NCBI GenBank assembly: GCA_027623195.1
Contig: JAQBUT010000008.1
Coordinates: 1-64,000, forward strand
DNA from: Chloroflexota bacterium
GTDB lineage: Bacteria > Chloroflexota > Dehalococcoidia > Lucifugimonadales > JADFKI01
Direction of reading: 5' to 3'
Length of the DNA: 64,000 nucleotides
Positions 35,427 through 51,695 of this stretch are shown in pieces. The stretch's first letter is position 1. Each line of letters begins with the position of its first letter. The notes under the pieces were generated by a model. The model was given only the letters and a program-made list of their open reading frames with translations. It was not told the DNA's origin and ran no database searches. Both the position numbers and the translations under genes were made by a program.

Positions 35427-37115
35427 ATGGCCAAGGTAGAAGGCAGCTACTTAGTAGCTAAGGCGATTCAAAATGAGGGCATAACCACGCTTTTCGGGTT
35501 ACCCGGGGGGCCGGTGGTGGAGGTAATAGGATTTGCGGCTCAGCTAGGCGTAAGGCCAATTAGCGTAAGGCATGAGCAGGCCGCCGCGCTCTCAGCCGCC
35601 GCATACGGCTATGTCAGGAACGAGGTTGGCGTTTGCGTGCTGGCTGCAGGGCCTGGTGTAACGAACGCTTTGACAGGCGCGCACGTGGCCTTCGACAACG
35701 GCCTACCCATAGTGCTCCTGGGAGGGTCCGGCCCTCAGCATGGGCGTTACTCCGGCACGTTCCAAGAGACAGATAACGTGCCGATGTTCAAGAGTATTAC
35801 CAAGATGTCGGTTCAGATAGATAGCGCAGCCCGCATTCCTGAATACATGTCCATGGCGTTCCGGAAGGCCCGAAGCGGCCGTCCTGGACCAGTCTACCTG
35901 GACCTTCCTTCAGACGTTCTTCAGGCAGAGGTCGAGGAAGATGACGTCAAGTGGCCGGTGAATTATTTCGCGGACGTGCATCCCATGGGCGACGCCAATC
36001 AGGTGAAGAAGGCCGCCGAACTGCTGCTAAACGCTGAAAGGCCGTTGATGATTGTCGGCAAGGGCGTTCGCTGGTCTGAGCCTACTGAAGAGCTCAAGGG
36101 TCTGGTTGAGGAACTGGGCATGCCTTTCATATCGTCACCAATGGGACGCGGCTTCATTCCGGACGACCATCCCTTGAATGCTGCTGCCGCTCGTAGCACA
36201 GCAATCCGAGGTGCAGATGTTGTTCTTATGGTCGGCGCCAGGATGAACTGGATGTTCGATTTCGGTCGAGGGTTTGCACCCGATGCCAAGATCATCCACG
36301 TAGACATCGAGCCGGGAGAAATCGGTATCAACCGAGCCGTTGAGGTCGGCATTGTAGGCGACGCCAAGGGCGTTCTGCAGCAGATATTGACGGAGATTGA
36401 TGGCAAGACGGACGGCATAGCGGATAAGGCCGAAGAAGGGCCGTGGCTAACATCTATCCGCGACAAGGCCGCTTCCAACGGAGCCGCTATCGAGCCCCTT
36501 TTGAACTCTGACAGCGATCCTATCCGCACATTCAGGATGATGAAGGAGATTCGCGACGTCTTCCCCAGGGATACCATCTACTGCGTGGACGGCCAGATGA
36601 CTTTGGGCACAGGTCGGCAGGTGCTCCAAAGCTACACACCGGCAAGTCGCCTAAACTCAGGCTCCAATGGCTGCGTGGGCGTGGGAGTGCCCTTCGCTGT
36701 TGGCGCCAAGCTTGGCCGACCGGACGTGCCTGTTGTTAGCATCAACGGCGACTGCGCCTTCGGATTCAACGCCATGGAGATGGAGACGGCGGTACGCCAC
36801 GGTATTCCCGCGATATTCATCATCAACAACAACTCGGGCATCGTTGGTGGCACTATGGAGGCGAAAATGGGCCTTCCCGAAGGATACGGTGAGAGAGTGG
36901 CGACCTATGTTCAGGACATTCGCTACGACAAGATTATCGAAGCCTTTGGTGGATATGCAGAGAACGTTACCCATCCAGAGGAGCTACGACCTGCCCTGGA
37001 GCGGGCGTACGAGGCGACAAAGGCCGGCAAGGTTGCATGCATTAATGTCATTTCTGAGCATATGGAGATGATGGTCAACACTGCCACACGGGCCAGCGCC
37101 CTGATGGGTTACTAA
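35427..37115 (+). CDS. ThDP-dependent enzyme, oxalyl-CoA decarboxylase / 2-hydroxyacyl-CoA lyase-like
   Basis: VRHEQAA, AGPG, GRPGPVYLDLP, GDCAFGFNAMEMET...NNN ThDP motif. Confidence 0.85.
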   Translation: MAKVEGSYLVAKAIQNEGITTLFGLPGGPVVEVIGFAAQLGVRPISVRHEQAAALSAAAYGYVRNEVGVCVLAAGPGVTNALTGAHVAFDNGLPIVLLGGSGPQHGRYSGTFQETDNVPMFKSITKMSVQIDSAARIPEYMSMAFRKARSGRPGPVYLDLPSDVLQAEVEEDDVKWPVNYFADVHPMGDANQVKKAAELLLNAERPLMIVGKGVRWSEPTEELKGLVEELGMPFISSPMGRGFIPDDHPLNAAAARSTAIRGADVVLMVGARMNWMFDFGRGFAPDAKIIHVDIEPGEIGINRAVEVGIVGDAKGVLQQILTEIDGKTDGIADKAEEGPWLTSIRDKAASNGAAIEPLLNSDSDPIRTFRMMKEIRDVFPRDTIYCVDGQMTLGTGRQVLQSYTPASRLNSGSNGCVGVGVPFAVGAKLGRPDVPVVSINGDCAFGFNAMEMETAVRHGIPAIFIINNNSGIVGGTMEAKMGLPEGYGERVATYVQDIRYDKIIEAFGGYAENVTHPEELRPALERAYEATKAGKVACINVISEHMEMMVNTATRASALMGY

Positions 37116-37137
37116 ACCCGAGATTAGGAATTAGAGT

Positions 37138-37185
37138 GAGCCGGGTACAAGCTGAGCTTCAGCCTGTGCCCGGCTCTTTGGTTTT
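37138..37185 (+). terminator. Hairpin/terminator after the ThDP enzyme gene
   Basis: GAGCCGGGTACA...TGTGCCCGGCTC followed by TTTGGTTTT. Confidence 0.6.
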
Positions 37186-37211
37186 ATCAACATGACAAAT
37201 TGGAGGATAGC

Positions 37212-37763
37212 ATGGCTAGAATACCGCAACTGACGACGAAAGAGGATGTGCCCCAGGAGCACCAGCACATCGTTGAAGAGATTATGGGGAGCCGAGGCGG
37301 TCGCATAAGCGGGCCCTTCTCGGTCCTTTTGCATAACCCGGAGGCTGCAGGGCGATCGGCCCATCTGGGAAGCGCGCTACGATTCGACTCCACCACCCTC
37401 ACCAAAGACCTGTTGGAGATTGCCATCAACACCGCGGCCAGGGAGAGCGACTGCGGTTACCAGTGGGCAGGACACTATAAGCTGGCTCGGGAAGCCGGCG
37501 TCAGCGAGGCCACGTTGGACGTCATAGCCAACCACGGCTCGCTGGGCTCTCTCTCCGAGGACGAGGCCCTGGTAGTGCAGTACGGCAGAGAGCTATTTCG
37601 CGATCACAGGATATCCGAGGCCACTTACGCTGCTGCTTCTGAGCGGTTCGGCACGCGCGGACTGGTTGATCTAACGGCCCTGATGGGTTATTACGGCATG
37701 CTTGCGTGTTCCCTAAACGCCTTTGACGTGCAACCTCCGTCTGACGCTCCTAAGCTGCCCTAG
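37212..37763 (+). CDS. Carboxymuconolactone decarboxylase / AhpD-like protein
   Basis: GPF..LLH.P, E.AI..AR, YQW..H..LA..AG, DL..L.GYY pattern; GGAGG RBS. Confidence 0.85.
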   Translation: MARIPQLTTKEDVPQEHQHIVEEIMGSRGGRISGPFSVLLHNPEAAGRSAHLGSALRFDSTTLTKDLLEIAINTAARESDCGYQWAGHYKLAREAGVSEATLDVIANHGSLGSLSEDEALVVQYGRELFRDHRISEATYAAASERFGTRGLVDLTALMGYYGMLACSLNAFDVQPPSDAPKLP

Positions 37764-38027
37764 CGTCCTTAAATATACGATGCTGTGGCCAGGTTGTGCG
37801 GCAAATCATGGCCTTCTGGTAATGCCTAGTCGGCCCCCGTCGCCGACCTGCCGAACGATGAACCTGGCCACGCTTTACCCTTTCACCATCCTCTGGTATA
37901 TTGTGCTCCGTAGGCCGAATACGTGCGTGGGAAAACATTATTATGGTCTGGAAATATGGGATTTTCCCACTTACATTTAATTCGGTCATCACTGGAGAAT
38001 TTGTTAGCTAGATAGAGAGGGATATTT

Positions 38028-39320
38028 ATGGCAAAGAAGGTAGGTCAGTATATAGAGCGGCCCGGCAGGCAGCCTGGTGATGCCCCGATCATCATTCCGG
38101 TGGCCGAAAGCTTAATGACGGAGCCAGGCATCCCAACTCGTGAGCGAGACGTTTCGTTCTTCAGTCGAGAAGACCCAATAGAAAACATGGCTCTTTCTGA
38201 GAGCGCCTCGGCTGAGTGGTCAAGGGAAGAGCGCATCCAGCATTCACCTGAGGCCAACGAATTCTTCGACAAGCATGAGGAGAATATGGGGCCAATTGTA
38301 GAGTGGGTGAGGCACAGTGGTGACCTTGAGCCCACCGGCTCCCCCTCAGGTGTTGATGTCTCGGAGGCAATTCGAGAGAAGGCCCGAGAGCTTGGCTATG
38401 GCGAGGTAGGATTTACCCGAAACGACGCACACTACGTTTACCAGAGCCGCAAGCGCCCGCTAAGGAACGACCTGCCGCATGCAATATGTCTTGCGTTGGA
38501 ACAGGACTATGTTAAGACGCAGACCATTCCTAGTATGGATGCTGAGGACACCCATTTCGGCACCTATGAAGATCAGGGACCGAAGTCCCAGGAGCTTACC
38601 GACTTTATAAGGGACCTTGGGTACAGCATTCAGGTCTCTGGTCCTACGTGGCATTACGGGCCTATGATTCCGCTGTTTGTTCAGGCGGGCCTTGGCCAGC
38701 TTGGCGCCAACGGCCAGTTGCTGTCACCTCACTTCGGCTCCCGCGCGCGACTGCAGATCATCTATACCGATGCGAAGGTCACCTACGACGAGCCTATCGA
38801 CTACGGCATTCACCAGTTTTGTAACGAGTGCCAGGTATGCGTCAACCGCTGCCCTGGCCGCGCTCTTATGGCCGATAAGGTCTGGTACAGAGGCGTCGAG
38901 AAGAACAAGCTGGTATTCAAGCGGTGCAGGCCGGTCATGGCCAGGTACCTCGGCTGTGGTGTCTGCATGAAGGTCTGCCCTATCCAGAAGTACGGAATGA
39001 AGCCCGTAATGGAACATTACGTCGAGACCGATGGCGAAATACTGGGCAAGAATACAGATAACCTTGAAGGCTACTCGTTCCCAGATAAAGGTTACTTCGG
39101 TCCAGGTCAGCTTCCCACATTTGAGCGAACGTTCTTCGATATGCCCAAAGGTCGAGCAGAGGACTGGCTGCTGCTGGAATTCCGCGACAAGCTCTTCGAG
39201 AATGCCGCGGCTGAGGGCAAGGATAAAGAGGATATGTGGACGGAGTTCCGAGAAAAGGTAGAGCAGTCCATGGACCGTCGAGGCATGGCCGTTGATATGG
39301 GCATGGATCTGGGGGTTTAG
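38028..39320 (+). CDS. Reductive dehalogenase / epoxyqueuosine reductase (QueG) superfamily cobalamin-Fe-S protein
   Basis: A.ELG..EVG; AGLGQLG.NG.L.SP.FG.R.RL; FCNECQVCVNRCP and C-x9-CGVCMKVCP; no Tat signal. Confidence 0.8.
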   Translation: MAKKVGQYIERPGRQPGDAPIIIPVAESLMTEPGIPTRERDVSFFSREDPIENMALSESASAEWSREERIQHSPEANEFFDKHEENMGPIVEWVRHSGDLEPTGSPSGVDVSEAIREKARELGYGEVGFTRNDAHYVYQSRKRPLRNDLPHAICLALEQDYVKTQTIPSMDAEDTHFGTYEDQGPKSQELTDFIRDLGYSIQVSGPTWHYGPMIPLFVQAGLGQLGANGQLLSPHFGSRARLQIIYTDAKVTYDEPIDYGIHQFCNECQVCVNRCPGRALMADKVWYRGVEKNKLVFKRCRPVMARYLGCGVCMKVCPIQKYGMKPVMEHYVETDGEILGKNTDNLEGYSFPDKGYFGPGQLPTFERTFFDMPKGRAEDWLLLEFRDKLFENAAAEGKDKEDMWTEFREKVEQSMDRRGMAVDMGMDLGV

Positions 39321-39366
39321 CCGCTCCGGAGGCAATCAACGACCAGGCTAATATGGTTGGTAACTT

Positions 39367-39405
39367 GGCGGGGACGCTTTTCATATGCGTCCCCGCCTTT
39401 ATTTT
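39367..39405 (+). terminator. Intrinsic terminator
   Basis: GGCGGGGACGC / GCGTCCCCGCC followed by TTTATTTT. Confidence 0.85.
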
Positions 39406-39559
39406 AGGCGGAGATTCTTGACCGCCATGCACCCGTCTACATCGCACCGCATGGCGTTTGACGAGCAAATCACGCCGGTGCTACACTGGGGTAATTTCGC
39501 TCCGACTATTTCCGTCCTAACGTTGGGCAACTACCCAAAAAAACGTCCGAAACGAGGGT

Positions 39560-41305
39560 ATGTTTCGATTTTCGCCAAATCCCAACAGAGCGCACCTTGT
39601 TAACTGGCGCGAGTGGGGCCTGGAAGCATTCGAGGAGGCCCAGCGACAGGACAAGCTGGTCATGCTCTACCTCGGCGCCTTCTGGTGCGGCTTTTGTCAG
39701 CGTATGGACGAGACCACGCTGTCCGTTGATGAGACCCAAACTCTGCTAAATGCCTACTTCATTCCAGTGCGCGTAGAGGATGCTCAGAGACCCGATCTCA
39801 ACGCTCGCTATAGCCAGAACGGCTGGCCAACCATCGTCTTCATGACTCCACAGGGCGATCATGTGGCCAGTGTGAACTACATGCCGCCCAACGATTTTTG
39901 TGATGTTCTGGTTCGGCTTTACCAGATGTACACGGAGCAAAGGCAGGAGTTGGAGCAATCGCTTGCCGAGGCCAACCAGCAGTCATCCCAGGTTAGCACG
40001 ACGTCTGAGCCTGCCAGCCCGCGTTCAGAGTCCGTCGCCGAGATCGCTGAAACGCTCATGGGTTTGGCAGACCCTATCTACGGCGGCTACGGACCGGACC
40101 ACAAGTTCCTGCATCCTGAGGCGCACCAGTTTCTGCTGTCCCGTTACCATGCTACCGGGGACCGTGCCTACGTAAACCATGTGGCCCTGTCTCTGGAGCA
40201 AATGAGGCGAAGCCAGACTCACGATAACCAGGACGGCGGGTTTCACCGCTACTCCTCAAAACGCGATTGGACAGAGCCCCACCAGGAGAAGCTGCTGGCA
40301 GACCATGCCGGATTGTTGAGCACATACCTCCACATGCTCGTCATTACTGGAGAGGCCAGGTACGAAGAAATGGCTCAGGAGATTATCGATTTTCTTGATC
40401 GAAGGCTCTCTGATGCTGATGGCGTGGCGTTTCTAGGCTGTCAGGACTACGTTCGCGCAGTGACCAGGCGCATCTCCGAAGGCCAGGAGGCAACCCCCCG
40501 AGAACCCGGCAGCACTTTTTGGATAATCGACGATTGGGTCTACACCGACGCCAACGCCCAGGCAGCCTCCGCCTACCTGCACGCATACCAGATACTTGGC
40601 GAATCTCGGCTAAGGGAAAGAGCTCTCAATGCTTTGGACTTTTTGTGGGAACATTGCCGGGACTCGGAAGGTCGCGTGTGCCACTACTTTGACGGTAGTC
40701 CCTACGTTCCGGGTCTTCTAATCGATAAGACGCATTTGGCCCATGCCAACTTGGATGCCCACGCCGTCACCGGTGAGCCTGGGTATTTGGAACGTGCAAC
40801 GGCTCTAGGCCAAAGCATTCTCAGCGAGCACAAGAACCCCGCGGGCGGCTTCTACGACATTAGCGAGAATGGACCGGGACATCTTCGGCACAAGTTGACG
40901 TTGCTTACGGAGAACGGCCTGGTGGCCTCGCTAATGCTCCGGCTGTCGGATGTCACTAGCGACATCTCTTTTGGCGAGGGCGCGACGTGGGCGCTGGGGG
41001 CCTTTACCGATGACCTGTCCCCCTACGGAGTATTCGCTTCGGACTTCGGAATGGCCATGGCTGGGTACATGTCCTCTCCCCTCACCGTGACGCTGGAAGC
41101 AGCGCCGGGAGACCCCCAGGCTCGTGTGTTAGCGTTGTCCGCCATGGACCGATTGACTGAACGCCGCGTCACCTGGATTTTTCGACCGCCGGATGAAAAG
41201 GCGAAGGCTGCTTTATACCTGGAGGATGGCGACTCCAAAGTAGGGCCAATATATGAACCGGCACAGTTAACGCCGGACCTGCTAACGGCGGCCCGTCTGT
41301 CTTAA
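39560..41305 (+). CDS. DUF255/YyaL-like protein (thioredoxin-like domain plus alpha/alpha barrel)
   Basis: VNWREWG.EAF..A, WCGFC..M, RPDL, GWPT..F.TP, GGFHRYS...W..PH.EKLL.D. Confidence 0.85.
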   Translation: MFRFSPNPNRAHLVNWREWGLEAFEEAQRQDKLVMLYLGAFWCGFCQRMDETTLSVDETQTLLNAYFIPVRVEDAQRPDLNARYSQNGWPTIVFMTPQGDHVASVNYMPPNDFCDVLVRLYQMYTEQRQELEQSLAEANQQSSQVSTTSEPASPRSESVAEIAETLMGLADPIYGGYGPDHKFLHPEAHQFLLSRYHATGDRAYVNHVALSLEQMRRSQTHDNQDGGFHRYSSKRDWTEPHQEKLLADHAGLLSTYLHMLVITGEARYEEMAQEIIDFLDRRLSDADGVAFLGCQDYVRAVTRRISEGQEATPREPGSTFWIIDDWVYTDANAQAASAYLHAYQILGESRLRERALNALDFLWEHCRDSEGRVCHYFDGSPYVPGLLIDKTHLAHANLDAHAVTGEPGYLERATALGQSILSEHKNPAGGFYDISENGPGHLRHKLTLLTENGLVASLMLRLSDVTSDISFGEGATWALGAFTDDLSPYGVFASDFGMAMAGYMSSPLTVTLEAAPGDPQARVLALSAMDRLTERRVTWIFRPPDEKAKAALYLEDGDSKVGPIYEPAQLTPDLLTAARLS

Positions 41306-41341
41306 TAGACCCTGCACCCGTTTAATGAGAGGTAATAAGTT

Positions 41342-42622
41342 ATGCGTTTGACCTTAGCCCGCCACCCGGTAACGGAGATAAAATTCGGCGACGAGACGTC
41401 ACTTGATGGAACGGCGCTGTCGATAAACGAAAGCGAGCTCCGCGCGCTACTGTTGGAGGACCAACGCCTGGAAAGCGTAGGCTTGGACGTCGTGCGTCCG
41501 GGAGAGAACTGCCGGGCAGGGCCTGTCTTCGACATCATAGAGCCCAGGGCCAAGGCGGATGGAGGCAGCCCGGACTTCCCTGGAGTACTGGGGCCATCAG
41601 CCATAGCTGGCATTGGCACGACCCACGTCCTGGAGGGCGCGGCCGTTACGGTGGTGGATTGCCGTCCCACTGTCACAGCGCGTGCGGCCAAGCGCAGCAT
41701 ACTGGAGATGAGTGGAGAGGGGGCGGCCCGTTCACCCTACTCTGCCCTGCAACACCTGGTTTTGACTCCGCGTTCGAGAGCCGATGTACCGTCCCATTCG
41801 GCCCTAAACGCAACGCGCATGGCCGGGCTTAAGGCAGCGGTCTACATGGCGCAGGCCGCACGAACCAGGCAGCCCATCACCACCGAGACGCTGGGTCCGA
41901 TAGGGCCGACGGAACCGGGACGCGAGGGCCTGCATCGAGTGGCCTACATCGGACAGATCTACTCCCGGCAGCGCTCTCCGGAGATTGATGAGCATATCTT
42001 CTACGGCCTGAACACAACTGGCATGTTGCCGGTGCTCACTAACCCCAACGAGTGGTTGGACGGCGCTGTTTTGCCCTCTTATGACACGTCGTTGGGCGGC
42101 GCGGAGACGTATTTTTACCAGAACCATCCTGTGATTACAGACCTCTATCGACGCCACAACGAAGGCGAACTGAACTTTGTCGGCGCAGTCGCGTCCATAT
42201 CCGGTCTGGACAACGAAGACCGGGATCGGTTGTGCCAGGTGGCGGCGCACCTCGTCAAATGGGGACTCAACGCCGATGCGGCGGTACTCACCAAGCACGG
42301 CGGTGGAGTGCCCCACGCCGACATGGCGCAGACGGCCCGCCTGCTAGAGCGCATGGAGGTCAGCACGGCCGTTATGGTGTCCGATATGTCCAGGGACCGC
42401 CGCGTAGAATCCGCGCTGCTTTTTAACTTCCCCGAGGTGAACGCCATCGTATACTGCGGCGGCGGCGACACAAAGTGGACGGTTCCGGCTGTGGAGCGCA
42501 TCATCGCGGGCAATCCGCAGGTGGAGGAGATGTTGGCACAATCGCAAGAACTCATGGCCTCCAGCATAGCCGGCGTCGTGAATCAGCAGGGCGCCAGCCA
42601 CGTAAGAGCGATGACCTACTAG
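41342..42622 (+). CDS. Glycine/sarcosine/betaine reductase component B proprotein (GrdE/GrdG/GrdI family), divergent
   Basis: D.IEPRAK, PDFPG, G.GTTHVLEGAAV, PNEWLDGAV, TY.YQNHPVI..LY.RH..ELNFVG; directly upstream of grdB. Confidence 0.88.
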   Translation: MRLTLARHPVTEIKFGDETSLDGTALSINESELRALLLEDQRLESVGLDVVRPGENCRAGPVFDIIEPRAKADGGSPDFPGVLGPSAIAGIGTTHVLEGAAVTVVDCRPTVTARAAKRSILEMSGEGAARSPYSALQHLVLTPRSRADVPSHSALNATRMAGLKAAVYMAQAARTRQPITTETLGPIGPTEPGREGLHRVAYIGQIYSRQRSPEIDEHIFYGLNTTGMLPVLTNPNEWLDGAVLPSYDTSLGGAETYFYQNHPVITDLYRRHNEGELNFVGAVASISGLDNEDRDRLCQVAAHLVKWGLNADAAVLTKHGGGVPHADMAQTARLLERMEVSTAVMVSDMSRDRRVESALLFNFPEVNAIVYCGGGDTKWTVPAVERIIAGNPQVEEMLAQSQELMASSIAGVVNQQGASHVRAMTY

Positions 42623-42700
42623 TCGGGTTTGGTGAAAGATATATAATCTTGATACATGCCCTGGCCTGGTTCATATGGTTAATGGGGCAGGAGGAAGAAA

Positions 42701-43984
42701 ATGAAAATAGTCCACTACGTCAATCAGTTCTTCGGAGGCATCGGCGCCGAGGAGGAGGCTGGTAGGCCGTTGGAGATCCGGGAGGGCGCTGTTGGACCCG
42801 GGCGTCTGTTGGAACAGCTATTCGGAGACGGCTCTCAGGTTCTCACGACGTTCGTGTGTGGCGATAACTACGCTGTGGAACAGCAGGACCAACTCATCAC
42901 CGATGTGTTGAACCACCTGCGCGCTTCAGGAGCAGACCTGTTCGTAGCAGGGCCATGCTTCGAGGCGGGACGATACGGCATGGCCGCCGGCGCTCTGTGC
43001 TCTGCAGTGCAGGCCGAGCTTCATATTCCTGCTGTAACGGCTATGGGTGGGGAGAATCCCGGCGTCGACCTGTACCGCGAGGAGCTATTCATCGTGGATT
43101 CCGGCGCCAGTGCATCGGCCATGAGCCAGGTGGTCACCCGTATGGTGGCGCTGGGCAAGAAGCTAGTAGCCGGTGAAGAGATTGGCACACCTGCCGACGA
43201 GGGCTACATTCCCAGAGGGCTTATTCGGGATGCCTTCGTTGAGCAGAACGCGGGCCAGCGTCTTGTTGCCATGGTCATGGACAAGGTCAATGGCGATCCA
43301 TTTGAGTCCGAGATGATGTCCACCTCATTCGAGCCAATACCCATGCCGGCAGCAGTGGCCGACATATCCAAGGCCCGGGTTATGGTCATTACCGATGGCG
43401 GCCTGGTGCCCTCGGGCAACCCTGACGGCATCGAGGGCATGGCCGCCACCCGCTGGGGAACCTACAGCATTAAAGACAAGGATGGCCTGGACGGCAAAGA
43501 CTACGAGATCTCCCACGGCGGCTACGACCCCAGGTTCGTCGAAGCGGACCCCGACAGGCTTGTGCCTCTAGACGCTCTCCGTCAGATGGAGAAAGAGGGC
43601 ATCATTGGGGAGTTGCACAACGAGTTTATTTCCACATCCGGGTTGGCCAATCCTCTCTCCAATACTCGGCGCATGGGCAAGGAGATGGCCCAGAGGGTCA
43701 AAGAATTGGGGGTGGACGCGGTAATCGTCACATCCACCTGAGGCACCAGCACTCGCAGCGGCGCTGCGATAACGACCGAACTGGAGAAGGCTGGCATACC
43801 GGTAGTGCAGATTACGTCAGCTCTGCCAATAGCCAAGATGGTGGGCTCAAACAGGGTAGTTCTTGGGAACGGGATTGTTCATGTTGCCGGAGACCCCAAT
43901 CTGCCCGTCAACGAAGAGAAAGACCTGCGACGCCGACTGGTGCAGAAGGCGCTGGACGCTCTGGAGTCGGAGGCGAAAGAATAA
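42701..43984 (+). CDS. grdB: Glycine/betaine/sarcosine reductase family selenoprotein B (Sec at TGA 43739-43741), about 427 aa
   Basis: MKIVHYVNQFFGGIG.EE.A, CGDNY, GP.F.AGRYG, HGGYD, DAVIVTST(TGA)GT; frame continues ELEKAGIPVVQI...VGSNRV to TAA 43982-43984. Confidence 0.93.
43753..43769 (+). promoter_or_regulatory. Candidate SECIS hairpin of grdB
   Basis: TCGCAGC-GGC-GCTGCGA, apex 18 nt after TGA. Confidence 0.65.
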
Positions 43985-44024
43985 CCTGTCGAAAGTCTTA
44001 TAAGCGACCCGAGGTGCACCAGAG

Positions 44025-45482
44025 ATGATGGGCATGACATCTCCAGGCAGGTTGCCGGTTATCACAGGCGTGCGACATTTTCTTGCCCATACGCCCGGGT
44101 TGGTGCGATATGGACACAAGCCGTCGCTGGATATCGCCAGAAACGCGGCCGTCGCAGAGAACATCGCGGGCCACCTGCGAACCTTTTCTGAGGCAGTCGC
44201 CTACCCGCCTAATCGCGCATACCTCGGCTCCATCTACCCTGACCAGCTTCGGGATATTCCCAGGCCCTGGTTCCTGCAAAACGGTCCTGCGGAACGCCGA
44301 CAGCCTCATGGGGACATGATGCCGGAGGAAGAGTTTTACGCCATTTTGAAAATGGCTGACGACTTCGACATCGTCTGGCTGACTGAAGATTTTGTGAAAG
44401 AAGCAACGCAGAATCTGCAGGATAACCCTCTGATCAGTTCCGCAGACTTGGACAAGCTTACCGATGGCCACCAGCAATCCGGCATAGAGCAACGGATCGC
44501 CCAAGAAAGCTCTTTACCCCTCACTTTGAAGGATGGGCGGCTCATTGGCTGCGTAACTGGGGCTGCGGGCAGCGACGAACTCAACGCCGGGGTGCTGCTG
44601 GAGAACCTGGCCTGTAAAGCCACTGCTGCCATGGCGCTGCGCACGCTACTCCACGATGGTGGCTTCGATGCGACTCAGGTGCAATACATCCTTAATACGG
44701 GCGAGGAGGCCGTGGGCGACTCCTTCCAACGCGGCGGTGGCAACATGGCCAAGGCCGTTGGGGAGTTATGCGGTCTTGCTGGCGCTACCGGCTCCGACGT
44801 GAAGGCCTTCTGCTGCGCGCCCGTGCACGCACTGGCTATCGCTGGTTCTATGGTGACCTCTGGCTTGTATGACCGCGTGGTTGTGATAGGGGGATGCTCG
44901 CTGGCCAAGCTGGGTATGAACTACACCGGCCACCTGGACGCGGACCAGCCGGTGCTCGAAGACGTCCTCGCGGCATTCGCAGTGATGGTCGAGCCTGACG
45001 ACGGTAAGAGCCCTGTGATTCGCCTGGACTCGGTCGGAGGGCACAACATCGGGGCCGGTTCGTCGTTGCGTGCCATATCCCGAACCCTCATGACTGATCC
45101 CTTGGCGAGGTTGGGATTTCGCTTCCAGGACATAGATAAATTCGCCATCGAGCTTCAGAACCCGGAGATCACCGAGCCAGCAGGTGGCGGCGACGTAACG
45201 GAGCGCAACTACCGAGTCATAGCGGGGCTGGCCGTTCAGAACCACGAGATTGATAGGTTGGACATACCCACATTCTCGGCACGGCACGGCATGCCTGGCT
45301 TCTCGTCGACGCAAGGGCACATCGCTTCTGCGGTGCCTTTCTTGGGTCACGCTGTGGACCACATTGGCTCTGGTGACATGCAGAGGGCTATGTTCGTGGC
45401 GAAGGGAAGCCTGTTCCTGGGCCGCATGACGCAAATGTCGGATGGTTTCTCTTTTATACTGGAGCGCAACCCTGCCCGCTAA
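44025..45482 (+). CDS. grdC: Glycine reductase complex component C, beta subunit (FabH-like fold)
   Basis: AVAYPPN.AY.G, MMPEEEF, LLENLACKA, EEAVGD..QRGGGN.AKA, ELQNPEITEPAG.GDV, GMPGF..TQGHI, KGSLFLGRMT. Confidence 0.93.
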   Translation: MMGMTSPGRLPVITGVRHFLAHTPGLVRYGHKPSLDIARNAAVAENIAGHLRTFSEAVAYPPNRAYLGSIYPDQLRDIPRPWFLQNGPAERRQPHGDMMPEEEFYAILKMADDFDIVWLTEDFVKEATQNLQDNPLISSADLDKLTDGHQQSGIEQRIAQESSLPLTLKDGRLIGCVTGAAGSDELNAGVLLENLACKATAAMALRTLLHDGGFDATQVQYILNTGEEAVGDSFQRGGGNMAKAVGELCGLAGATGSDVKAFCCAPVHALAIAGSMVTSGLYDRVVVIGGCSLAKLGMNYTGHLDADQPVLEDVLAAFAVMVEPDDGKSPVIRLDSVGGHNIGAGSSLRAISRTLMTDPLARLGFRFQDIDKFAIELQNPEITEPAGGGDVTERNYRVIAGLAVQNHEIDRLDIPTFSARHGMPGFSSTQGHIASAVPFLGHAVDHIGSGDMQRAMFVAKGSLFLGRMTQMSDGFSFILERNPAR

Positions 45483-45554
45483 AGATGCACAACATGCAAT
45501 AATGGGGCCTGCTTTAACAGGTCTGGAATTTGGTGAACCACGGAGGCCAATGGA

Positions 45555-46025
45555 ATGGATTTGAAGGGGAAGAAGGTCATAGCCCTGGGAGAGAGGGATG
45601 GCGTTCAGAGCGGTTCTATTGTCGAATGTGTTAAGAGCGCCGGGGCCGAAGTGGTGATGGAGTTCACTGCCTGTTTCGTCTGAACGTCCGCTGGTGCGCT
45701 TGACCTGGAGGGTCAAGAGATGATCAAGAGGGCGGCAGATCGGGTCGGCACCGAAGACCTCGTCGTAGTGTTGGGCACTCCCACCGCTAACAGCAGCAAG
45801 CTTTTCGCCATGACAGTCACGGAAGGCGATCCCACATGGGCTGGTCCTTTGGCCGGCGCTGGGTTAGGTATCCCCGCCTACCATGTCATGGAAGACGAGA
45901 TCAAATCTCAGGTAGACGAATCGGTTTACGAGGACGAGGTTGGTCTAACCGAAATGACTATTGAGAACCCTGACGAAATTCTCGCAGCCGTCAAAGCGGT
46001 GCGGGAGAGCAACGGCTTAGCCTAG
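45555..46025 (+). CDS. grdA: Glycine/sarcosine/betaine reductase selenoprotein A (Sec at TGA 45681-45683), about 156 aa
   Basis: MDLKGKKVIALGERDGV...TACFV(TGA)TSAGALDLE.Q continues in frame into ORF 45720 with TVTEGDPTWAGPLAG. Confidence 0.95.
45699..45717 (+). promoter_or_regulatory. Candidate SECIS hairpin of grdA
   Basis: CTTGACCT-GGA-GGGTCAAG (U-G closing pair), apex 23 nt after TGA. Confidence 0.65.
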
Positions 46026-46113
46026 GATTTTTTCAGGGCGTTTTACGGGTGGAGTCTCTTGGCAGCCCAGGCGAGAGTTCGGTTATTGAAATTCAACGTA
46101 AGCGAGGTTCGAG

Positions 46114-47013
46114 ATGGATTACCAGGTTTGGGTTAACGGCGAATACGTGGCACGCAGCCAGGCCACCATCAGCATGATGGACCGTGGCTTCAGGCTCGGC
46201 GACGTAGTATTCGATACGTCACGCACCTTCAATGGTAAGGTCTTTCGGCTGCGGGACCACCTTGATAGGCTGTACCGGTCGCTGCAATACACCCGCATAG
46301 ACCCCGGTCTGAGCAAGGACGAGATGGAACTTATCACGCTGGGTGTGGTACAGCAAAACGAGGCCATGCGGGAGGGGGCTGGCGACGACTATCAGATTAC
46401 TCAGATCATAACGCGAGGCGTCGGGCCGATACAGAACCCGTCCAGTCCCAATGTCTCCATCTGGATTGACCCGTTGGGCGGGCCTCGTTTCGCCCCTCTA
46501 TACAAGACGGGCGCTCACGTCGTAATTCCCAAGACCCGCAGCTACACTGCCGAGCAGATCGATCCCAAGGTCAAGCACTACAGCAGGCTCAACTTCGTGA
46601 TGGCGGAGCTTGAGGCCACCGACGTAGACCCCGAAGCCCTCCCCCTTCTTTTGGACACCGACGGCAACATCACCGAGGGCATTGGCGCGAACTTCTTCAT
46701 GGTTAGCAATGGCGTGCTGAAGACCGCCAGAGACAACGACATATTGCAGGGCGTATCCCGCATGACCGTTTTCAATTTGGCTGAGCAGCTAGGCATACCT
46801 GTTGTCGAGGAAGACCTCCAGCCTTACGACGTTTACACCGCAGACGAAGCGTTTCTCTGCAGTACCCCTTACTGCATTTTGCCGGTGGGCCGAGTCGACA
46901 ACCGAGCCTTGGGAGAGGGCGCTCCCGGTCCGATAACCAACCAGCTGCTAGCTGCCTGGAGCGAAAGAGTAGGCCTCGATATAGTTGATCAACTTGGCAG
47001 ATTGACTCAGTAG
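46114..47013 (+). CDS. Aminotransferase class IV (branched-chain / D-amino acid transaminase family)
   Basis: DRGFRLGDVVFD, H.DRL.RS, K(HYSRLN), EG..ANFF, ILQGVSR, ADEAFL. Confidence 0.9.
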   Translation: MDYQVWVNGEYVARSQATISMMDRGFRLGDVVFDTSRTFNGKVFRLRDHLDRLYRSLQYTRIDPGLSKDEMELITLGVVQQNEAMREGAGDDYQITQIITRGVGPIQNPSSPNVSIWIDPLGGPRFAPLYKTGAHVVIPKTRSYTAEQIDPKVKHYSRLNFVMAELEATDVDPEALPLLLDTDGNITEGIGANFFMVSNGVLKTARDNDILQGVSRMTVFNLAEQLGIPVVEEDLQPYDVYTADEAFLCSTPYCILPVGRVDNRALGEGAPGPITNQLLAAWSERVGLDIVDQLGRLTQ

Positions 47014-47101
47014 CTCACGATTTGAGACCTTCGCCATCCCAGGTTTATCCCTCTGTTGTACCGTTATCGGCCAAATCAATAATCTGTGAACCTGAAACGA
47101 A

Positions 47102-47130
47102 TTGTCATATCCCTACTTCCGTGGTACTAT
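47102..47130 (+). promoter_or_regulatory. Sigma70-type promoter upstream of infA region
   Basis: TTGTCA-17 nt-TACTAT with extended -10 TG. Confidence 0.55.
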
Positions 47131-47360
47131 GACCGTGCTTCTCATTGAGACCTTGGTTGGTATCGCCAAAATATGGCGTGGACAAGCCTGCCACGGGTGC
47201 CTAATGGGAATCCAGAGCGGCATGCGAGATTTTACCTGGAACGGAAACGCATGCCTGAATTGGCGTCTGTGGGGATTGCCTAGGTAAGAGCCCTTCAGTT
47301 TTCGTCAAAGTCTGGTATTGTTAATGTATAAGGTTCTGTTTAGTCGTAACAGGGAGTTGT

Positions 47361-47579
47361 ATGGCAAAAAAAGAGGTGATTGAGGTTGAAGGAACGGTTT
47401 CGGAATCCCTTCCGAACGCTTCTTTCAGAGTGGAATTAGCCAATGGTCACCAGGTGCTTGCCTATGCTTCGGGCAAGATACGCCGCTTCTTCATCCGCGT
47501 CTTGCCGGGTGATAGGGTTCTCGTGGAACTCTCGCCATATGATTTGACTAGAGGCAGAATAACCTACAGGTTCAAGTAA
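47361..47579 (+). CDS. infA: Translation initiation factor IF-1
   Basis: [24 protein letters not shown]...SGK.R...[24 protein letters not shown]. Confidence 0.98.
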
Positions 47580-47671
47580 CCCCGTATCTATTGGCAGGTG
47601 ACCGCACGTCTACTTTTTGTCGGTGTGTCCCTGTCTCGTTGCCTATGAAGAATTTGGGAGGCGTTTGAGAT

Positions 47672-49156
47672 ATGTACCGAAAGACGGACGAAGACGGAGT
47701 CGATGAGTATCTCTGGAAGCCATTTGATAGGACCGGCAATTCTTCAGATTCCCTAGAGCGTATTGTTAGGGCCAATGGGCAGGAGCAAATGGCCGACGGC
47801 GCCGCCCTTGCTGGCCCCGACGAGACCCAATCCCAAACCGGCCTCGATGCAGACTGGGAGAAGGATCTCGAAACTGTTGAAATTGACGACCCAATCCGCA
47901 TGTACCTGAGGGAGATCGGTAGGGTAAGCCTTCTTAAGAAATCGGATGAGCGAACGCTAGCCAGGCGCATAGAGGCCTGCAAGCACATCCAAAACGTAGA
48001 GAAGGACCTTGCAGAAGCGGAAGTCGAGTCTTCGCGAGCTTGGGTAAATATCGCTTTCATGGTCAAGCGCCTGGGCGATGGCAGCTCTCTTTTGAATGCA
48101 CTTTGCAGGTACCTCGGATTCGAACGTGAGCCTACGCTCTCCGATGCCATGGCTGACCCCGTCCTACGAGAAGCTCTTGATGGTGAACTTCCTGAAGAGC
48201 TTTTGAACTTCGTTTCTGAGATGCTCAACAAGGAACCTGAGGATGTTAAGGCCGAGTTACAACGACTCTCCTTGGACAGCCGCTTGCTTCCCAGGGAGAT
48301 TAACGAGCTTGTTAACCCCGAGACAGATGTTAAGCATCTGAGCATAGTGGCACAGAAAGAAGAATTCATAGAATCACTGAAATCCTATGAGCTTATATTC
48401 AATAGCCATTTGGAAAGGTTAAAGGACGAAGGCGTCCGGGCCGGACGCCATCTGGCGGAGGCCAACCTCCGATTGGTAGTCAGCGTTTGCAAGAAGTACG
48501 TTGGTCGAGGCCTTTCCCTGCTGGACCTTATCCAAGAGGGAAACATCGGCCTTATGCGCGGCGTCGAGAAGTTCGATTACCGCAAGGGCTACAAGTTCAG
48601 CACCTACGCTCACTGGTGGATTCGACAGGCGACCACCAGGGCCATCGCCGACCAGTCCCGGACCATTCGACTACCGGTGCACATGGTTGAGGTCATTAAC
48701 AAGCTACTCCGCGTCAGCCGACAGCTGGTTCAAGAGAATGGCCGAGAGCCTACCAGCGCCGAGATCGGCATTGCGATGGAGGTCTCCGAGGAGAGAGTCA
48801 AAGAAATTCTGAAGCTTACGCAATCGCCATTTTCACTGGAGACGCCTATTGGCGAAGAAGAGTCCAGCCAGCTAGGCGATTTCATCGAGGACAAGGACGC
48901 CCTGGCGCCAGCCGACGCAGCCTCATACCAGCTTCTCCGAGAGCAGGTAGATGACGTGCTCTACACCCTGAGCGACCGCGAGGCTCGAGTACTCCAACTT
49001 AGGTTTGGCCTGCTGGACGGCAGGACACGTACATTGGAAGAGGTTGGCCGGAACTTCGGCGTAACACGAGAGCGAATCCGACAGATCGAGGCTAAGGCTC
49101 TGAGGAAGCTCAGGCACCCCAGCCGTTCCAAGAAGCTTCGAGACTTTTTGGATTAG
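47672..49156 (+). CDS. RpoD/SigA-family sigma70 factor (possibly a paralog)
   Basis: [59 protein letters not shown]. Confidence 0.92.
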
Positions 49157-49313
49157 TTGGACTGGCGGGGCTTCGAATCCCTATCGCCCACTGGTGGACG
49201 AATAGTCCCTACAGAAACCATATAAAGCATATACGAGGTGCGGACGAGCCATCGACTCAGATGGCCCATCCGCACCTTTTGATTTGTCCGCGATCCGGAA
49301 GCAGCGTTTAAGC

Positions 49314-50069
49314 ATGGATGCATTTAGCCTTATACAGATTCTGGTTGCCGTGCTTGCCACTTTGGCCGGTTCCACCGTGCTCGCTTCTCTGGGCTTCGGT
49401 ATAGGGATGGTGGCAACTCCCATCCTGCTTCTTGTGTTGGACCCCCAGACAGCCGTGGTCGTGTTAAACGCGGTCAGCGTTCCCATAACAGGACTGCTGG
49501 TCTGGCAGACTCGCCGCCACCTCCGATTGAAGGATGCCATCCCTGTGGCCGCGTTGGGATTGGCCGGCGCTCTGATTGGCGCATATGTGCTGTCCGCCTC
49601 GGGCGAACGAGTCCTTCGCCTGAGCATCGTAGTCTTCATTATTCTCCTCACTGCTGCCACTGCCTTTAATCCTGTTGGCCTACAAGGGAAGGTCCCCTAC
49701 CCCAAAGTGGTCGGCGGGGCAATAGGCTTCCTGGTCGGGGTAATGCTGGGGGCGCTGGCTATTGGCGGGCCGCTGCTGGTCCTGTTCGTCCTTAGCCAGG
49801 GCTGGGACCGGCACCGAATTCGCGCCTTTCTGTCGTTATATCTATTCGTGATAATGTCCTCCGCCACGGTTGGGTACATCCCCACGGGGCTGTTCACCCC
49901 AGACCGCATCGTCTTGGCGCTGGTGGCCCTGGGGCCTGTGCTTCTGGGCTTCTGGGTAGGCAGTCGGGTGGCAGGCCGTTTGAACGAGGAGCTTTTCCGG
50001 CGTGTGGCCATTGGCGTTATCGTGGCGTCCAGCCTGTCAGTGTTAGTGCGAGAGCTAACCAGCCTTTAG
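49314..50069 (+). CDS. TauE/SafE-family (sulfite exporter-like) membrane protein
   Basis: GFG.G.VA.P.L and IGGP repeats; about 8 TM segments. Confidence 0.85.
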   Translation: MDAFSLIQILVAVLATLAGSTVLASLGFGIGMVATPILLLVLDPQTAVVVLNAVSVPITGLLVWQTRRHLRLKDAIPVAALGLAGALIGAYVLSASGERVLRLSIVVFIILLTAATAFNPVGLQGKVPYPKVVGGAIGFLVGVMLGALAIGGPLLVLFVLSQGWDRHRIRAFLSLYLFVIMSSATVGYIPTGLFTPDRIVLALVALGPVLLGFWVGSRVAGRLNEELFRRVAIGVIVASSLSVLVRELTSL

Positions 50070-50142
50070 GCTCCTATACGGGGTCGCCTACTTGATGCGG
50101 AGAGAGACGCTGAGATCGGGCCAAAAAACGCAGTTGGCTGGT

Positions 50143-50171
50143 TTGACATGGGTTTAAGGGCCTCCTATACT
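50143..50171 (+). promoter_or_regulatory. Near-consensus sigma70 promoter of the DUF1800 operon
   Basis: TTGACA-17 nt-TATACT. Confidence 0.75.
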
Positions 50172-50288
50172 TGCCTTAAATTGGCTTAGAACTCCCCATG
50201 TCTGACCTCTCCTGATGTGCATTGATTGGATTCGACCCGGGGCTTGATGTCCGCGGGGCGCAGACCGTTCATCTGAAAGGCTCAAAGC

Positions 50289-51695
50289 ATGCCTAATAAA
50301 GAAGACATTGCCCTGATGGCCCACCTGATGAGGCGAGCCGGTTTCGGCGCAACTTACGATGAGTTGGAAATCCTCGCTGAGCGTGGTTACGACGCTACTG
50401 TGGAAGAGTTGCTCCAGCCCGAGGTTCAGGAGCCGGTGGACCGGTACGACCTTCTTCGATACCATCCCTGGTCCTGGAAACCAGGCACCATACAGGGCAC
50501 CGGCCACGCGACATGGCTGTTCGACATGGTGAACACCAGGGCACCGCTGCTGGAGAAGATGACCGTATTCTGGCATGGCATATTTGCTACCGGGGTCTCC
50601 AAGGTCGACCACTGGGACGAGATCGTCGACATGGTTGACATGTTCCGTGATAAGGGCTTGGGCAGCTACAAAGAAATGCTGATCGAGGTGGCCAAAAGCC
50701 CGGCCATGCTGTACTGGCTAGACAACAACGAGAACCACGCCGGCGCTCCTAACGAGAATTGGGGCCGGGAGCTTCTGGAGCTATTCAGCATGGGCGTTGG
50801 CAACTACACCGAAAAGGACGTCTACGAATGCTCCAGGGCCTTCACGGGCTGGACGATTACCCCGAAACTGCCGCGCTTTCCCATGGGGCGGTTCGACTGG
50901 TCTTTCGAATACCGCGAAGAGGACCACGATGGAGATGAGAAGTCATTCCTTGGAAACAGGGGAAACTTCAACGGTGAGGACATAATCGATATCATATGCC
51001 GCCAGCCGGCCACGGCCCGATTCATGGCCCGCCACCTGTACAACTTCTTTGTGGCCGACGAGGCGCAGGTGCCTGCCTGGCAAACGGTACCGCCCCGGGA
51101 CCCTGAAGCGATACAGGTCTTGGTGGACGCCTTCGTGGCGAACGACTATGACATGCGAGAGGTTCTCCGGGTGCTGTTCAACTCCGATTTCTTCAAAGAG
51201 GCCCGTTTCTCCCGAATCAAGAGTCCGGTTGAGGTTGTGGTGAATACCCTGAGGTTCGTCGGAGGTCACGAATTCCCTGCGCCCGGCATAGGAAACCTGG
51301 GACGGCAGACGGGTTACATGGGGCAGGAGGTCCTCAACCCGCCGAGCGTGGAGGGGTGGCATACGGGCCGCGAATGGATAAACAGCGGCTCGCTGATGCG
51401 CCGAATTAATTTCGTTGCCGATCTTGTGGGCGACGTTAACTTGCCAGGAGTGCAGGCCATACTAGGTCGATTGCGAGGCGCAGGGGAGATGCCGCCCGAT
51501 GGGTTCGTGGACATGTGCCTGGAGCAGATGGGCCCGCTGGACCTGGACACGCAGACTCGTCAGGAATTGATAGACCACGCCGCACCGGATGGCAACCTGT
51601 CCTGGGATACACCAACGCAGGCTGATCTCTCGACTCAGAGGGTAAGTGAGATGCTACAACTGATCGTATCTTTGAGAGATTTCCAGTACGCATAG
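50289..51695 (+). CDS. DUF1800-domain protein
   Basis: HLMRRAGFG, EKMTVFWH..FAT, PAML.WLD, PNENWGRELLELFSMG, PPSVEGW. Confidence 0.9.
   Translation: MPNKEDIALMAHLMRRAGFGATYDELEILAERGYDATVEELLQPEVQEPVDRYDLLRYHPWSWKPGTIQGTGHATWLFDMVNTRAPLLEKMTVFWHGIFATGVSKVDHWDEIVDMVDMFRDKGLGSYKEMLIEVAKSPAMLYWLDNNENHAGAPNENWGRELLELFSMGVGNYTEKDVYECSRAFTGWTITPKLPRFPMGRFDWSFEYREEDHDGDEKSFLGNRGNFNGEDIIDIICRQPATARFMARHLYNFFVADEAQVPAWQTVPPRDPEAIQVLVDAFVANDYDMREVLRVLFNSDFFKEARFSRIKSPVEVVVNTLRFVGGHEFPAPGIGNLGRQTGYMGQEVLNPPSVEGWHTGREWINSGSLMRRINFVADLVGDVNLPGVQAILGRLRGAGEMPPDGFVDMCLEQMGPLDLDTQTRQELIDHAAPDGNLSWDTPTQADLSTQRVSEMLQLIVSLRDFQYA

Follow-up and report, generated by a model that had tools for sequence, protein, structure and literature searches.

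A probable Grd-type selenoenzyme of an uncharacterised, cysteine-poor and GrdD-less lineage in a Chloroflexota bacterium

Introduction

Grd-type selenoenzymes belong to strictly anaerobic amino-acid fermentation, in which a pyruvoyl group binds the amine of the substrate and GrdD makes acetyl phosphate for ATP formation. In the known logic of these systems several B components feed one A and one C component, and GrdD is said to carry the cysteine that forms acetyl phosphate, a result attributed to Kohlstock and colleagues in 2001. Here we describe a cluster of this family from a Chloroflexota bacterium of the class Dehalococcoidia, located in a stretch of 64,000 nucleotides (assembly GCA_027623195.1, contig JAQBUT010000008.1, positions 1 to 64,000; hereafter the window). 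Six genes, all on the + strand and spanning positions 39560-47013, encode a DUF255 protein, a GrdE-like protein, a GrdB-like selenoprotein, GrdC, GrdA and a class IV aminotransferase. Judged from its sequences, the cluster is probably a working Grd-type selenoenzyme of an uncharacterised, cysteine-poor and GrdD-less lineage, whose substrate would be an alpha-substituted acetate.

The UxxCxxC pattern that begins at the selenocysteine (Sec, U) is treated as the GrdB motif in a 2026 review, which also describes selenoproteins as rarely kept by aerobic bacteria (PMC13188914). The large lineage described here, without a pyruvoyl site or GrdD, occurs in bacteria with genes for haem-copper oxidases, which are abundant in soils, in groundwater and in the deep ocean. 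Deviations in both subunits of component B have been described for the fluoroacetate reductase FarBE: FarB lacks the CxxC after its Sec, FarE lacks the processing cysteines, and the substrate cannot form a Schiff base (PMC10838667). The cluster in the window belongs to a widespread and experimentally untouched Grd variant; we found no paper describing this lineage, though subscription journals and unsearched PMC articles may hold one.

The features on which the argument draws are as follows.

39560-41305, + strand: DUF255 / Thioredox_DsbH protein, 581 residues; Pfam PF03190, 92 bits
41342-42622, + strand: GrdE-like subunit of component B, 426 residues; Pfam PF09338 (Gly_reductase), 257 bits
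42701-43984, + strand: GrdB-like selenoprotein, 427 residues; PF07355 (GRDB), 428 bits; in-frame TGA
43753-43769, + strand: SECIS-like hairpin (selenocysteine insertion sequence) after the GrdB TGA; stem CGCAGC / GCTGCG, loop GGC
44025-45482, + strand: GrdC, component C beta subunit, thiolase/KAS-III-like, 485 residues; NF040746, 604 bits against a cut-off of 450
45555-46025, + strand: GrdA, selenoprotein A, 156 residues; NF040748, 192 bits against a cut-off of 130; in-frame TGA
45699-45717, + strand: candidate SECIS hairpin after the GrdA TGA; 8-bp stem
46114-47013, + strand: class IV aminotransferase, 299 residues; Pfam PF01063 (Aminotran_4), 135 bits

The source assembly comprises 2.99 Mb in 65 contigs and is 87% complete, the window lying on contig C37 of our numbering. 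Gene order, strand and coordinates agree with a first-pass annotation made from the letters alone, as judged by the positions of the open reading frames (ORFs) and by family profile scores; the bounds of the GrdB-like gene likewise stand, save that its end is corrected to 43984 (TAA at 43982-43984).

Selenocysteine decoding of the two TGA codons

The first-pass annotation had read grdB and grdA as broken by the ORF caller at TGA, and a TGA is indeed the sole interruption of each frame, at 43739-43741 (codon 347) in the GrdB-like gene and at 45681-45683 (codon 43) in grdA. It had added that the two would be pseudogenes if the organism had no Sec machinery. A genome-wide profile search recovers selA (554 bits), selB (311 bits) and selD (385 bits), and a tRNA-SeC with anticodon TCA lies on contig C46 of the same genome; thus, the two TGA codons specify selenocysteine and neither gene is a pseudogene. 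The selD gene carries an in-frame TGA of its own, and selA, selD and the tRNA-SeC gene all lie on contig C46.

Decay of TGA-interrupted genes would account for the splitting of both by standard ORF calling, yet the complete Sec machinery and the state of the homologues leave this explanation a practically negligible probability. Among 80 related loci, fetched with the GrdE-like protein as query, 72 GrdB-like genes were found in 70 loci; all 72 have TGA at the Sec position, with the frame and motif beyond it conserved, and 71 of them read TS[TA]UGTSTRSG. The hairpin of the GrdB-like genes, which lies 12-14 nt 3' of the TGA, was followed in an alignment of 69 distinct homologous versions of the 66 nt starting at the TGA, where CGCAGC-GGN-GCTGCG occupies columns 16-30. 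Within the stem, synonymous third positions are fixed, without any change at columns 27 and 30 and with at least 90% conservation at columns 18 and 21, and those beyond it vary freely (columns 6, 9, 15, 33 and 36). This pattern is the mark of selection on the RNA in addition to that on the encoded protein, as a bacterial SECIS should show. It is this conservation that supports the GrdB hairpin, its folding energy being unconvincing alone (z -0.51); that of the GrdA hairpin is -21.5 kcal/mol, with a z of -1.59 that is weak by itself. In addition, a single 12,328-nt contig of a second strain, from an independent study, spans the stretch with 42 differences and no indels and leaves both TGA codons unchanged. 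The 40 differences listed divide into 25 synonymous, 12 non-synonymous and 3 intergenic ones, and those 3' of both TGA codons are synonymous, which also speaks against decay.

A second probable selenoprotein is encoded on contig C56 of the same genome (L002:1201-1971, - strand). It is PrdB-like, with a TGA at codon 160 (VPVUPNCTRA) and a frame open for at least 97 residues past it, and its gene adjoins that of a copper nitrite reductase; in locus L093, a PrdB-like gene of similar kind, again with a TGA, lies directly 5' of grdC.

The GrdB-like subunit

Both subunits of component B were compared with GrdG and GrdF of Peptoclostridium acidaminophilum, with the GrdI-like protein and GrdH of Enterococcus gilvus, and with the products of grdE-grdA-grdB-grdC-grdD of Acetoanaerobium noterae, whose record is unannotated at the cluster and whose genes were assigned in this analysis (GrdB, 946 bits against TIGR01917; GrdD, 580 bits against NF040747). 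The alignment confirms the altered GrdB motif noticed at first pass. The window protein reads TSTUGTSTRSG, and its Sec347 aligns with the reference Sec, but the UxxCxxC of the references has given way to serines, with UGTSTRSGAAI in the window and its clade where GrdB, GrdF and GrdH have TSTUGTCTRCGATM. A loop differs as well, being TVGNGTS in GrdB, TTGTGTS in GrdF, TVGTGTT in GrdH and STSGLANPLSNTRR in the window protein. Conversely, a cysteine has been gained at position 86, within GPCFEAGRYG (clade form GPCFxAGRYG): GPC is found in 71 of 71 rows with Ser/Ser (SxxS) after the Sec and in none of the 14 other rows, which read GPAF. A GPxF-type motif at this site is listed as fully conserved in GrdB and GrdF by Nobu et al. 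(PMC9751293). Two cysteines have thus been lost together with the gain of one, which, as a single evolutionary event, is a correlation and not a test; Cys86 may be the resolving thiol.

Curated models place the protein within the family and outside its named members. It scores 466 bits against the broad subfamily model TIGR01918 (cut-off 65), but falls short of the GrdB equivalog TIGR01917 (429 versus 602 bits, the A. noterae control reaching 946), of GrdF NF040794 (478 versus 800 bits) and of GrdH NF040795 (441 versus 775 bits). Scores against the D-proline reductase models are far below their cut-offs (PrdB TIGR04483, 82 versus 300 bits; PrdA TIGR04480, 26 versus 700 bits). Identity amounts to 45% with GrdF, 42% with GrdB and 41.5% with GrdH, and a sequence search at E up to 0.01 returned no solved structure for either the GrdB-like or the GrdE-like protein.

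A FastTree phylogeny of 162 GrdB-family rows (85 from the loci and references, 77 from a search of 1.84 billion representatives) bears out this separation; it was built rapidly, its support values are local only, and most of its representative rows end at the Sec. All 71 Ser/Ser rows, together with one row that ends before the motif, group on a single branch (SH-like support 99), to which a UxxSxxC clade of other Chloroflexota is sister (support 96; joint support 91); GrdB+GrdF (99) and GrdH (99) make up clades elsewhere in the tree. The window protein therefore does not nest within the glycine/sarcosine or betaine reductases, whereas nesting in such a characterised clade, with grdD elsewhere in the genome, is what the first-pass annotation had named as overturning its interpretation. 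Its nearest relatives are from a SAR202 metagenome-assembled genome (MAG; 80% identity), a Dehalococcoidia MAG and Nitrospinota MAGs, and its subclade mixes at least six phyla, which shows transfer of the genes between lineages.

Further arrangements of these genes were seen in passing. Four representatives (P0135, P0147, P0167 and P0223) are natural GrdE-like/GrdB-like fusions of 774-798 residues that end at the Sec position, and among the representatives P0147 comes closest to FarE in its N-terminal part (359 bits). Some loci hold a second, more distant grdE/grdB pair next to the first, such as one that is still Ser/Ser (L036:10669-13465, - strand; 51% and 57% identity) and one that reads UGSSTRCG (L034:12861-15429, + strand; 36% and 44% identity).

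The GrdE-like subunit and the lost pyruvoyl site

The claim of an altered GrdE motif is likewise upheld by the reference proteins. In the alignment the processing site is SGNC in GrdE and GrdG, SGSF in GrdI and PSYD in the window protein. A Cys at the pyruvoyl column is found in none of the 77 clade GrdE rows, which have H (43), Q (10), N (9) and other residues instead; the second processing-cysteine column is a gap in all 77, and 61 rows have no Cys anywhere from column -4 to +5. Because the pyruvoyl-forming Cys is absent, the GrdE-like protein is probably not a self-cleaving proprotein. Moreover, the residue at the former pyruvoyl site differs by subclade, which fits several substrate specificities. 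Overall similarity to the named proteins is low, with 28-31% identity to GrdE, GrdG and GrdI and scores well below the NCBIfam cut-offs for GrdG (NF040793, 203 versus 780 bits) and FarE (NF053623, 156 versus 675 bits).

These features bear on a betaine-type reading, in which the enzyme would resemble GrdHI and cleave glycine betaine, or another quaternary ammonium or sulfonium osmolyte, to a trialkylamine or sulfide and an acetyl unit. Such osmolytes are common in marine settings and many hosts of the lineage are marine; in addition, the processing-site Cys is missing from the GrdE-like protein as it is from GrdI, and its identity with the GrdI-like protein of E. gilvus (31%) is a little above that with GrdE or GrdG (28%). 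Nevertheless, we consider a betaine-type reductase unlikely. GrdH keeps UGTCTRCG, the SxxS clade lies far from the GrdH branch, and the score against NF040795 is little more than half its cut-off. No BCCT transporter is found in the window or among the annotated related loci, whereas both reference clusters carry one directly 3', and the reference betaine cluster also has grdD and trxB.

GrdC, GrdA and the missing GrdD

GrdA and GrdC both pass their curated equivalog cut-offs, with 47-48% and about 42% identity to the references, respectively. Sec43 of GrdA lies in CFVU, a motif read with TGA in 14 of 14 GrdA genes of the related loci, and every GrdC compared, in 15 of 15 clade rows and 2 of 2 canonical proteins, has the thiolase-type Cys263. 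Since it keeps Cys263, GrdC can still accept an acyl group.

The first-pass annotation had found grdD and trxB missing from the window, which holds, and had suggested looking for grdD elsewhere in the genome. The GrdD model NF040747 has no match in the 87%-complete genome, where the best tblastn hit of an E. gilvus GrdD query has an E-value of 1.5, and the same query finds nothing in 91 related loci. Both methods recover a known case: A. noterae GrdD scores 580 bits with the model and is found by tblastn at 50% identity directly after grdC. Of the five further genomes that hold the SxxS clade, none has a GrdD above the cut-off and each has GrdC once; they are three Dehalococcoidia genomes, with the relevant contigs deposited as chromosomes, one Entotheonella genome and one 7.3-Mb 'delta proteobacterium'. 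Nor was GrdD found in five more genomes of Chloroflexota that carry Grd-family genes, CxxC-type ones among them, for a total of 0 of 11 genomes searched. This consistent absence argues that the system does not end in acetyl phosphate. Acetate kinase (ackA) was not found in the 87%-complete genome of the window, which does encode two haem-copper oxidase subunits I (COX1; 540 and 466 bits). The GrdD model also responds to PlsX in 6 of 14 control genomes and to nothing at all in the genome of the window, whose PlsX homologue may be missing or unassembled.

The standing of GrdA and GrdC is one argument for an ordinary glycine reductase that has merely diverged and serves Stickland-type energy conservation or the reductive glycine pathway. 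Close homologues are named 'glycine reductase' or 'betaine reductase' in public sources, and glycine reductases are reported for some Dehalococcoidia by Nobu et al. (2022, PMC9751293). However, we regard this as very improbable, given the absence of the pyruvoyl-forming Cys, the TIGR01917 score of the GrdB-like protein beside that of the A. noterae control, the failure to find GrdD and AckA, and a host with haem-copper oxidases. The GrdB-like protein further departs, by our reading, from the GrdB motif set out by Nobu et al. (PMC9751293), with GAE for GGE, GPCFE for GPxF[NF], RLVP for RV[IL]P and TSGLANPL for TxGNxTxV.

Distribution of the lineage

Of 8,000 proteins scored in a word-based search, 2,566 reached an E-value of 0.001 or lower; identity is 67-91% for the best 120, nearly all of which end at the Sec in the databases. 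Hosts of the lineage include SAR202/Dehalococcoidia, Nitrospinota, Binatia, Entotheonella and others. Thus, the suggestion of a distinct Grd-type reductase in a Dehalococcoidia-like organism stands as regards the distinct clade, but not as a peculiarity of that organism, the lineage being spread over several phyla. A GrdB-family match (E up to 1e-30) turned up in 19 of the 401 Chloroflexota genomes sampled; every full match has one TGA, and none of the 19 exceeds the TIGR01917 cut-off for a canonical glycine reductase. Two of these genomes are unpublished (G038 and G272), the former supplying row L113 of the sister clade, and none of our conclusions depends on these two by themselves. Among 85 representatives scanned, only about five closely resemble GrdB, GrdF or GrdH. 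The GrdB protein family is mostly uncharacterised.

The DUF255 partner and the gene neighbourhood

The first gene of the cluster encodes a DUF255 protein. Its N-terminal thioredoxin fold has the CxxC in FWCGFCQR (Cys43 and Cys46), and its C-terminal part resembles an alpha/alpha barrel; among solved structures, 7tkv_A comes closest (E 2.6e-30). The CxxC (FWCxxCQ) is kept in 34 of 34 homologues from the related loci. Of the 49 loci with at least 2.5 kb of flank on both sides, 22 have a DUF255 homologue no further than 2.5 kb from the grdE/grdB pair, and GrdC and GrdA are found in that range in 12 and 11, respectively. The pair itself is tightly linked, grdB directly following grdE in 77 of 80 loci and the remaining three ending at that point. 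DUF255 is likely, as we infer, to be a dedicated redox partner of component B. Genomes hold one GrdC and one to three GrdB-family genes, which matches the logic of several B components served by one A and one C component.

The first-pass annotation had counted the class IV aminotransferase as a member of the cluster. It is a co-oriented neighbour only, with no homologue in any of the 80 related loci, and its best NCBIfam match is to the BCAT subfamily (207 bits against a cut-off of 363). Elsewhere, Amidohydro_2 proteins accompany the pair in 24 loci, mostly divergent and directly 5', followed by luciferase-like monooxygenases and NMT1-type binding proteins (17 loci each), SBP_bac_5 and dienelactone hydrolase (13 each) and Rieske oxygenase subunits (9 and 8), together with PrpD, FAA hydrolase, hydantoinases and CoA-transferase III. 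These neighbours form an aerobic catabolic setting.

Immediately 5' of the DUF255 gene lies a reductive-dehalogenase-like protein with two 4Fe-4S motifs (38028-39320, + strand). It scores 104 bits against TIGR02486 (cut-off 160), has a QueG-like match too, and has no homologue among the 80 related loci. Its position agrees with a third reading of the cluster, a FarBE-like reductive dehalogenase that would take the halide off fluoro-, chloro- or bromoacetate, and for which a further argument is that the window proteins show the two deviations described for FarB and FarE, no CxxC after the Sec and no processing cysteines (PMC10838667, as described there). The paired motif losses are thus variation already in print for FarBE, but by score and by tree the present proteins are not FarBE. 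The GrdE-like protein scores lower against the FarE equivalog than against GrdG, P0147 with its most FarE-like part is not sister to the SxxS clade, and the radical-SAM and antiporter genes of the far operon have no counterpart among the 12 window proteins scanned for domains (spanning 35427-51695). Furthermore, the variation of the former pyruvoyl-site residue between subclades suggests several substrates over one. A haloacetate dehalogenase is, on balance, distinctly unlikely.

Other neighbours in the window are a CMD/AhpD-like protein 5' of the cluster (37200-37763, + strand), which could be another thiol-redox helper and has one homologue among the loci (39% identity, L036:1879-2433, near grdA-grdC of the closest Dehalococcoidia locus), and a thiamine pyrophosphate (TPP) enzyme (35427-37115, + strand) nearest to oxalyl-CoA decarboxylase or 2-hydroxyacyl-CoA lyase (413 bits, below the cut-off of 557), with weaker sulfoacetaldehyde acetyltransferase (Xsc-like) scores as well. 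On the 3' side follow an RpoD-type sigma factor (47672-49156) and, past it and 2.3 kb downstream of the cluster, a TauE/SafE-family membrane protein (49284-50069, + strand; annotated as sulfite exporter family). TauE/SafE and the weak Xsc-like scores of the TPP enzyme suggested sulfoacetate as the substrate, but homologues of TauE, TPP and CMD are lacking in all, or all but a few, of the 80 loci, and the substrate was not assigned from neighbours, whose make-up differs between subclades. A scan for promoters and terminators gave sites not above shuffles (6 versus a mean of 5.0; 14 versus 9.9), and we claim no operon boundaries. No trxA or trxB occurs among the 12 window proteins scanned; genome-wide, there are two trxB-like genes, both on other contigs, which score 335 and 328 bits where the cut-off is 343.

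Proposed mechanism and its implications

Gene content, the capacity to decode Sec, clade membership, motif states, synteny and the failure to find GrdD are direct results of the comparisons above, from which we infer a substrate class, a fate of the acyl group and roles for DUF255 and Cys86. The GrdE-like and GrdB-like proteins would form a substrate-specific B component. Since no pyruvoyl group is possible, the substrate would not be held as a Schiff base, a view supported by the FarBE precedent, in which both motif losses go with a substrate unable to form one according to the published description (PMC10838667). The substrate is probably X-CH2-COO-, with a leaving group that needs no amine chemistry, such as a quaternary ammonium, sulfonium, halide, sulfonate or similar group. 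Sec347 of GrdB would attack the alpha carbon and displace X, and the carboxymethyl group would move to Sec43 of GrdA; Cys40 of GrdA would then close an Se-S bond, and the two-carbon unit would finally be bound as a thioester to Cys263 of GrdC. Because neither GrdD nor acetate kinase was found, acetyl phosphate would not be the product, and the KAS-III-like fold of GrdC suggests release of the acyl group by hydrolysis or its transfer to coenzyme A (CoA). Reducing power may come from NADPH through the trxB-like reductases, and the DUF255 CxxC protein is probably a reductant or protector of the selenol, a role that the lost CxxC of GrdB may once have had.

Different substrate and different product chemistry, as proposed at first pass, is therefore the best-supported reading of these sequences, given the separate clade, the failed curated cut-offs and the lack of a detectable grdD. 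Several observations weigh against the scheme. The genome is 87% complete, which leaves the absence of grdD and ackA unproven, and the ten other genomes help for grdD only. Non-conserved cysteines lie 1-3 columns from the canonical processing site in 16 of 77 clade GrdE rows, and self-processing might on that ground be retained in some clade members. DUF255 is not beside the pair in 27 of the 49 well-flanked loci, neighbourhoods vary by subclade and indicate no single substrate, and no RNA run is listed that holds the stretch.

A bolder proposal, possible though doubtful, would extend the scheme to the oxygen-respiring hosts in general (SAR202, Nitrospinota, Binatia and Entotheonella). The lineage would then be a selenium-dependent reductive C-X lyase rather than an ATP-yielding fermentation, whose GrdE/GrdB paralogues strip the carboxymethyl unit from non-amine compounds (sulfoacetate, haloacetates, carboxymethyl ethers or thioethers, and onium compounds) and pass it through GrdA and a GrdD-less GrdC to acetyl-CoA, with DUF255 and Cys86 keeping the selenol reduced under oxygen. 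If reductive cleavage of small organic acids is indeed the function, a selenium-dependent step would be added to the turnover of dissolved organic matter, the retention of costly Sec machinery by these organisms would be explained, and DUF255 (the SPATA20/YyaL family) would gain a concrete partner to test.

Comparison with known systems

In comparison with the glycine reductase GrdABCDE and TrxAB of the Acetoanaerobium/Peptoclostridium type, the cluster has homologous GrdE, GrdB (with Sec), GrdA (with Sec in CxxU) and GrdC, and the STUG context of the GrdB Sec is common to both. In contrast, the window GrdE-like protein (28% identity to GrdE) has no pyruvoyl-precursor Cys, and the GrdB-like protein (42% identity to GrdB) has UxxSxxS for UxxCxxC plus the extra Cys86. 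The window system also differs in that grdD was not found in the genome, trxA and trxB are not in the cluster, and the host is aerobic, with no ackA found.

The betaine reductase GrdHI of E. gilvus (pCR1A, NZ_CP030933) shares with the window system the lack of a Cys at the GrdE-family cleavage site and a Sec-containing B subunit that feeds GrdA and GrdC. However, GrdH keeps UGTCTRCG, and the E. gilvus cluster has trxB, thioredoxin, grdA, grdC, grdD and a BCCT transporter.

FarBE of Cloacibacillus porcorum MFA1 shows the same two motif losses, a likeness taken from the published description and not from a FarB sequence (PMC10838667). The two differ in the FarE-model score (156 versus 675 bits), in the clade occupied in the tree and in the radical-SAM and antiporter partners, seen in the far operon and not among the 12 window proteins. 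Moreover, grdC and grdD are drawn in the Cloacibacillus clusters, according to a figure legend of that paper (PMC10838667), whereas GrdD was not found in the present lineage, and the hosts here are aerobic environmental bacteria rather than gut anaerobes.

The nearest system in the tree is the UxxSxxC sister clade of other Chloroflexota (loci L109-L115), with 49-53% identity and an STSGLxNP-type loop in common. GrdD was not found in its two searched genomes either. This clade keeps the second Cys (UGTSTRCG) and the canonical GPAFNAGRYG without Cys86, and thus represents an intermediate state between the reference GrdB proteins and the cysteine-poor lineage of the window.

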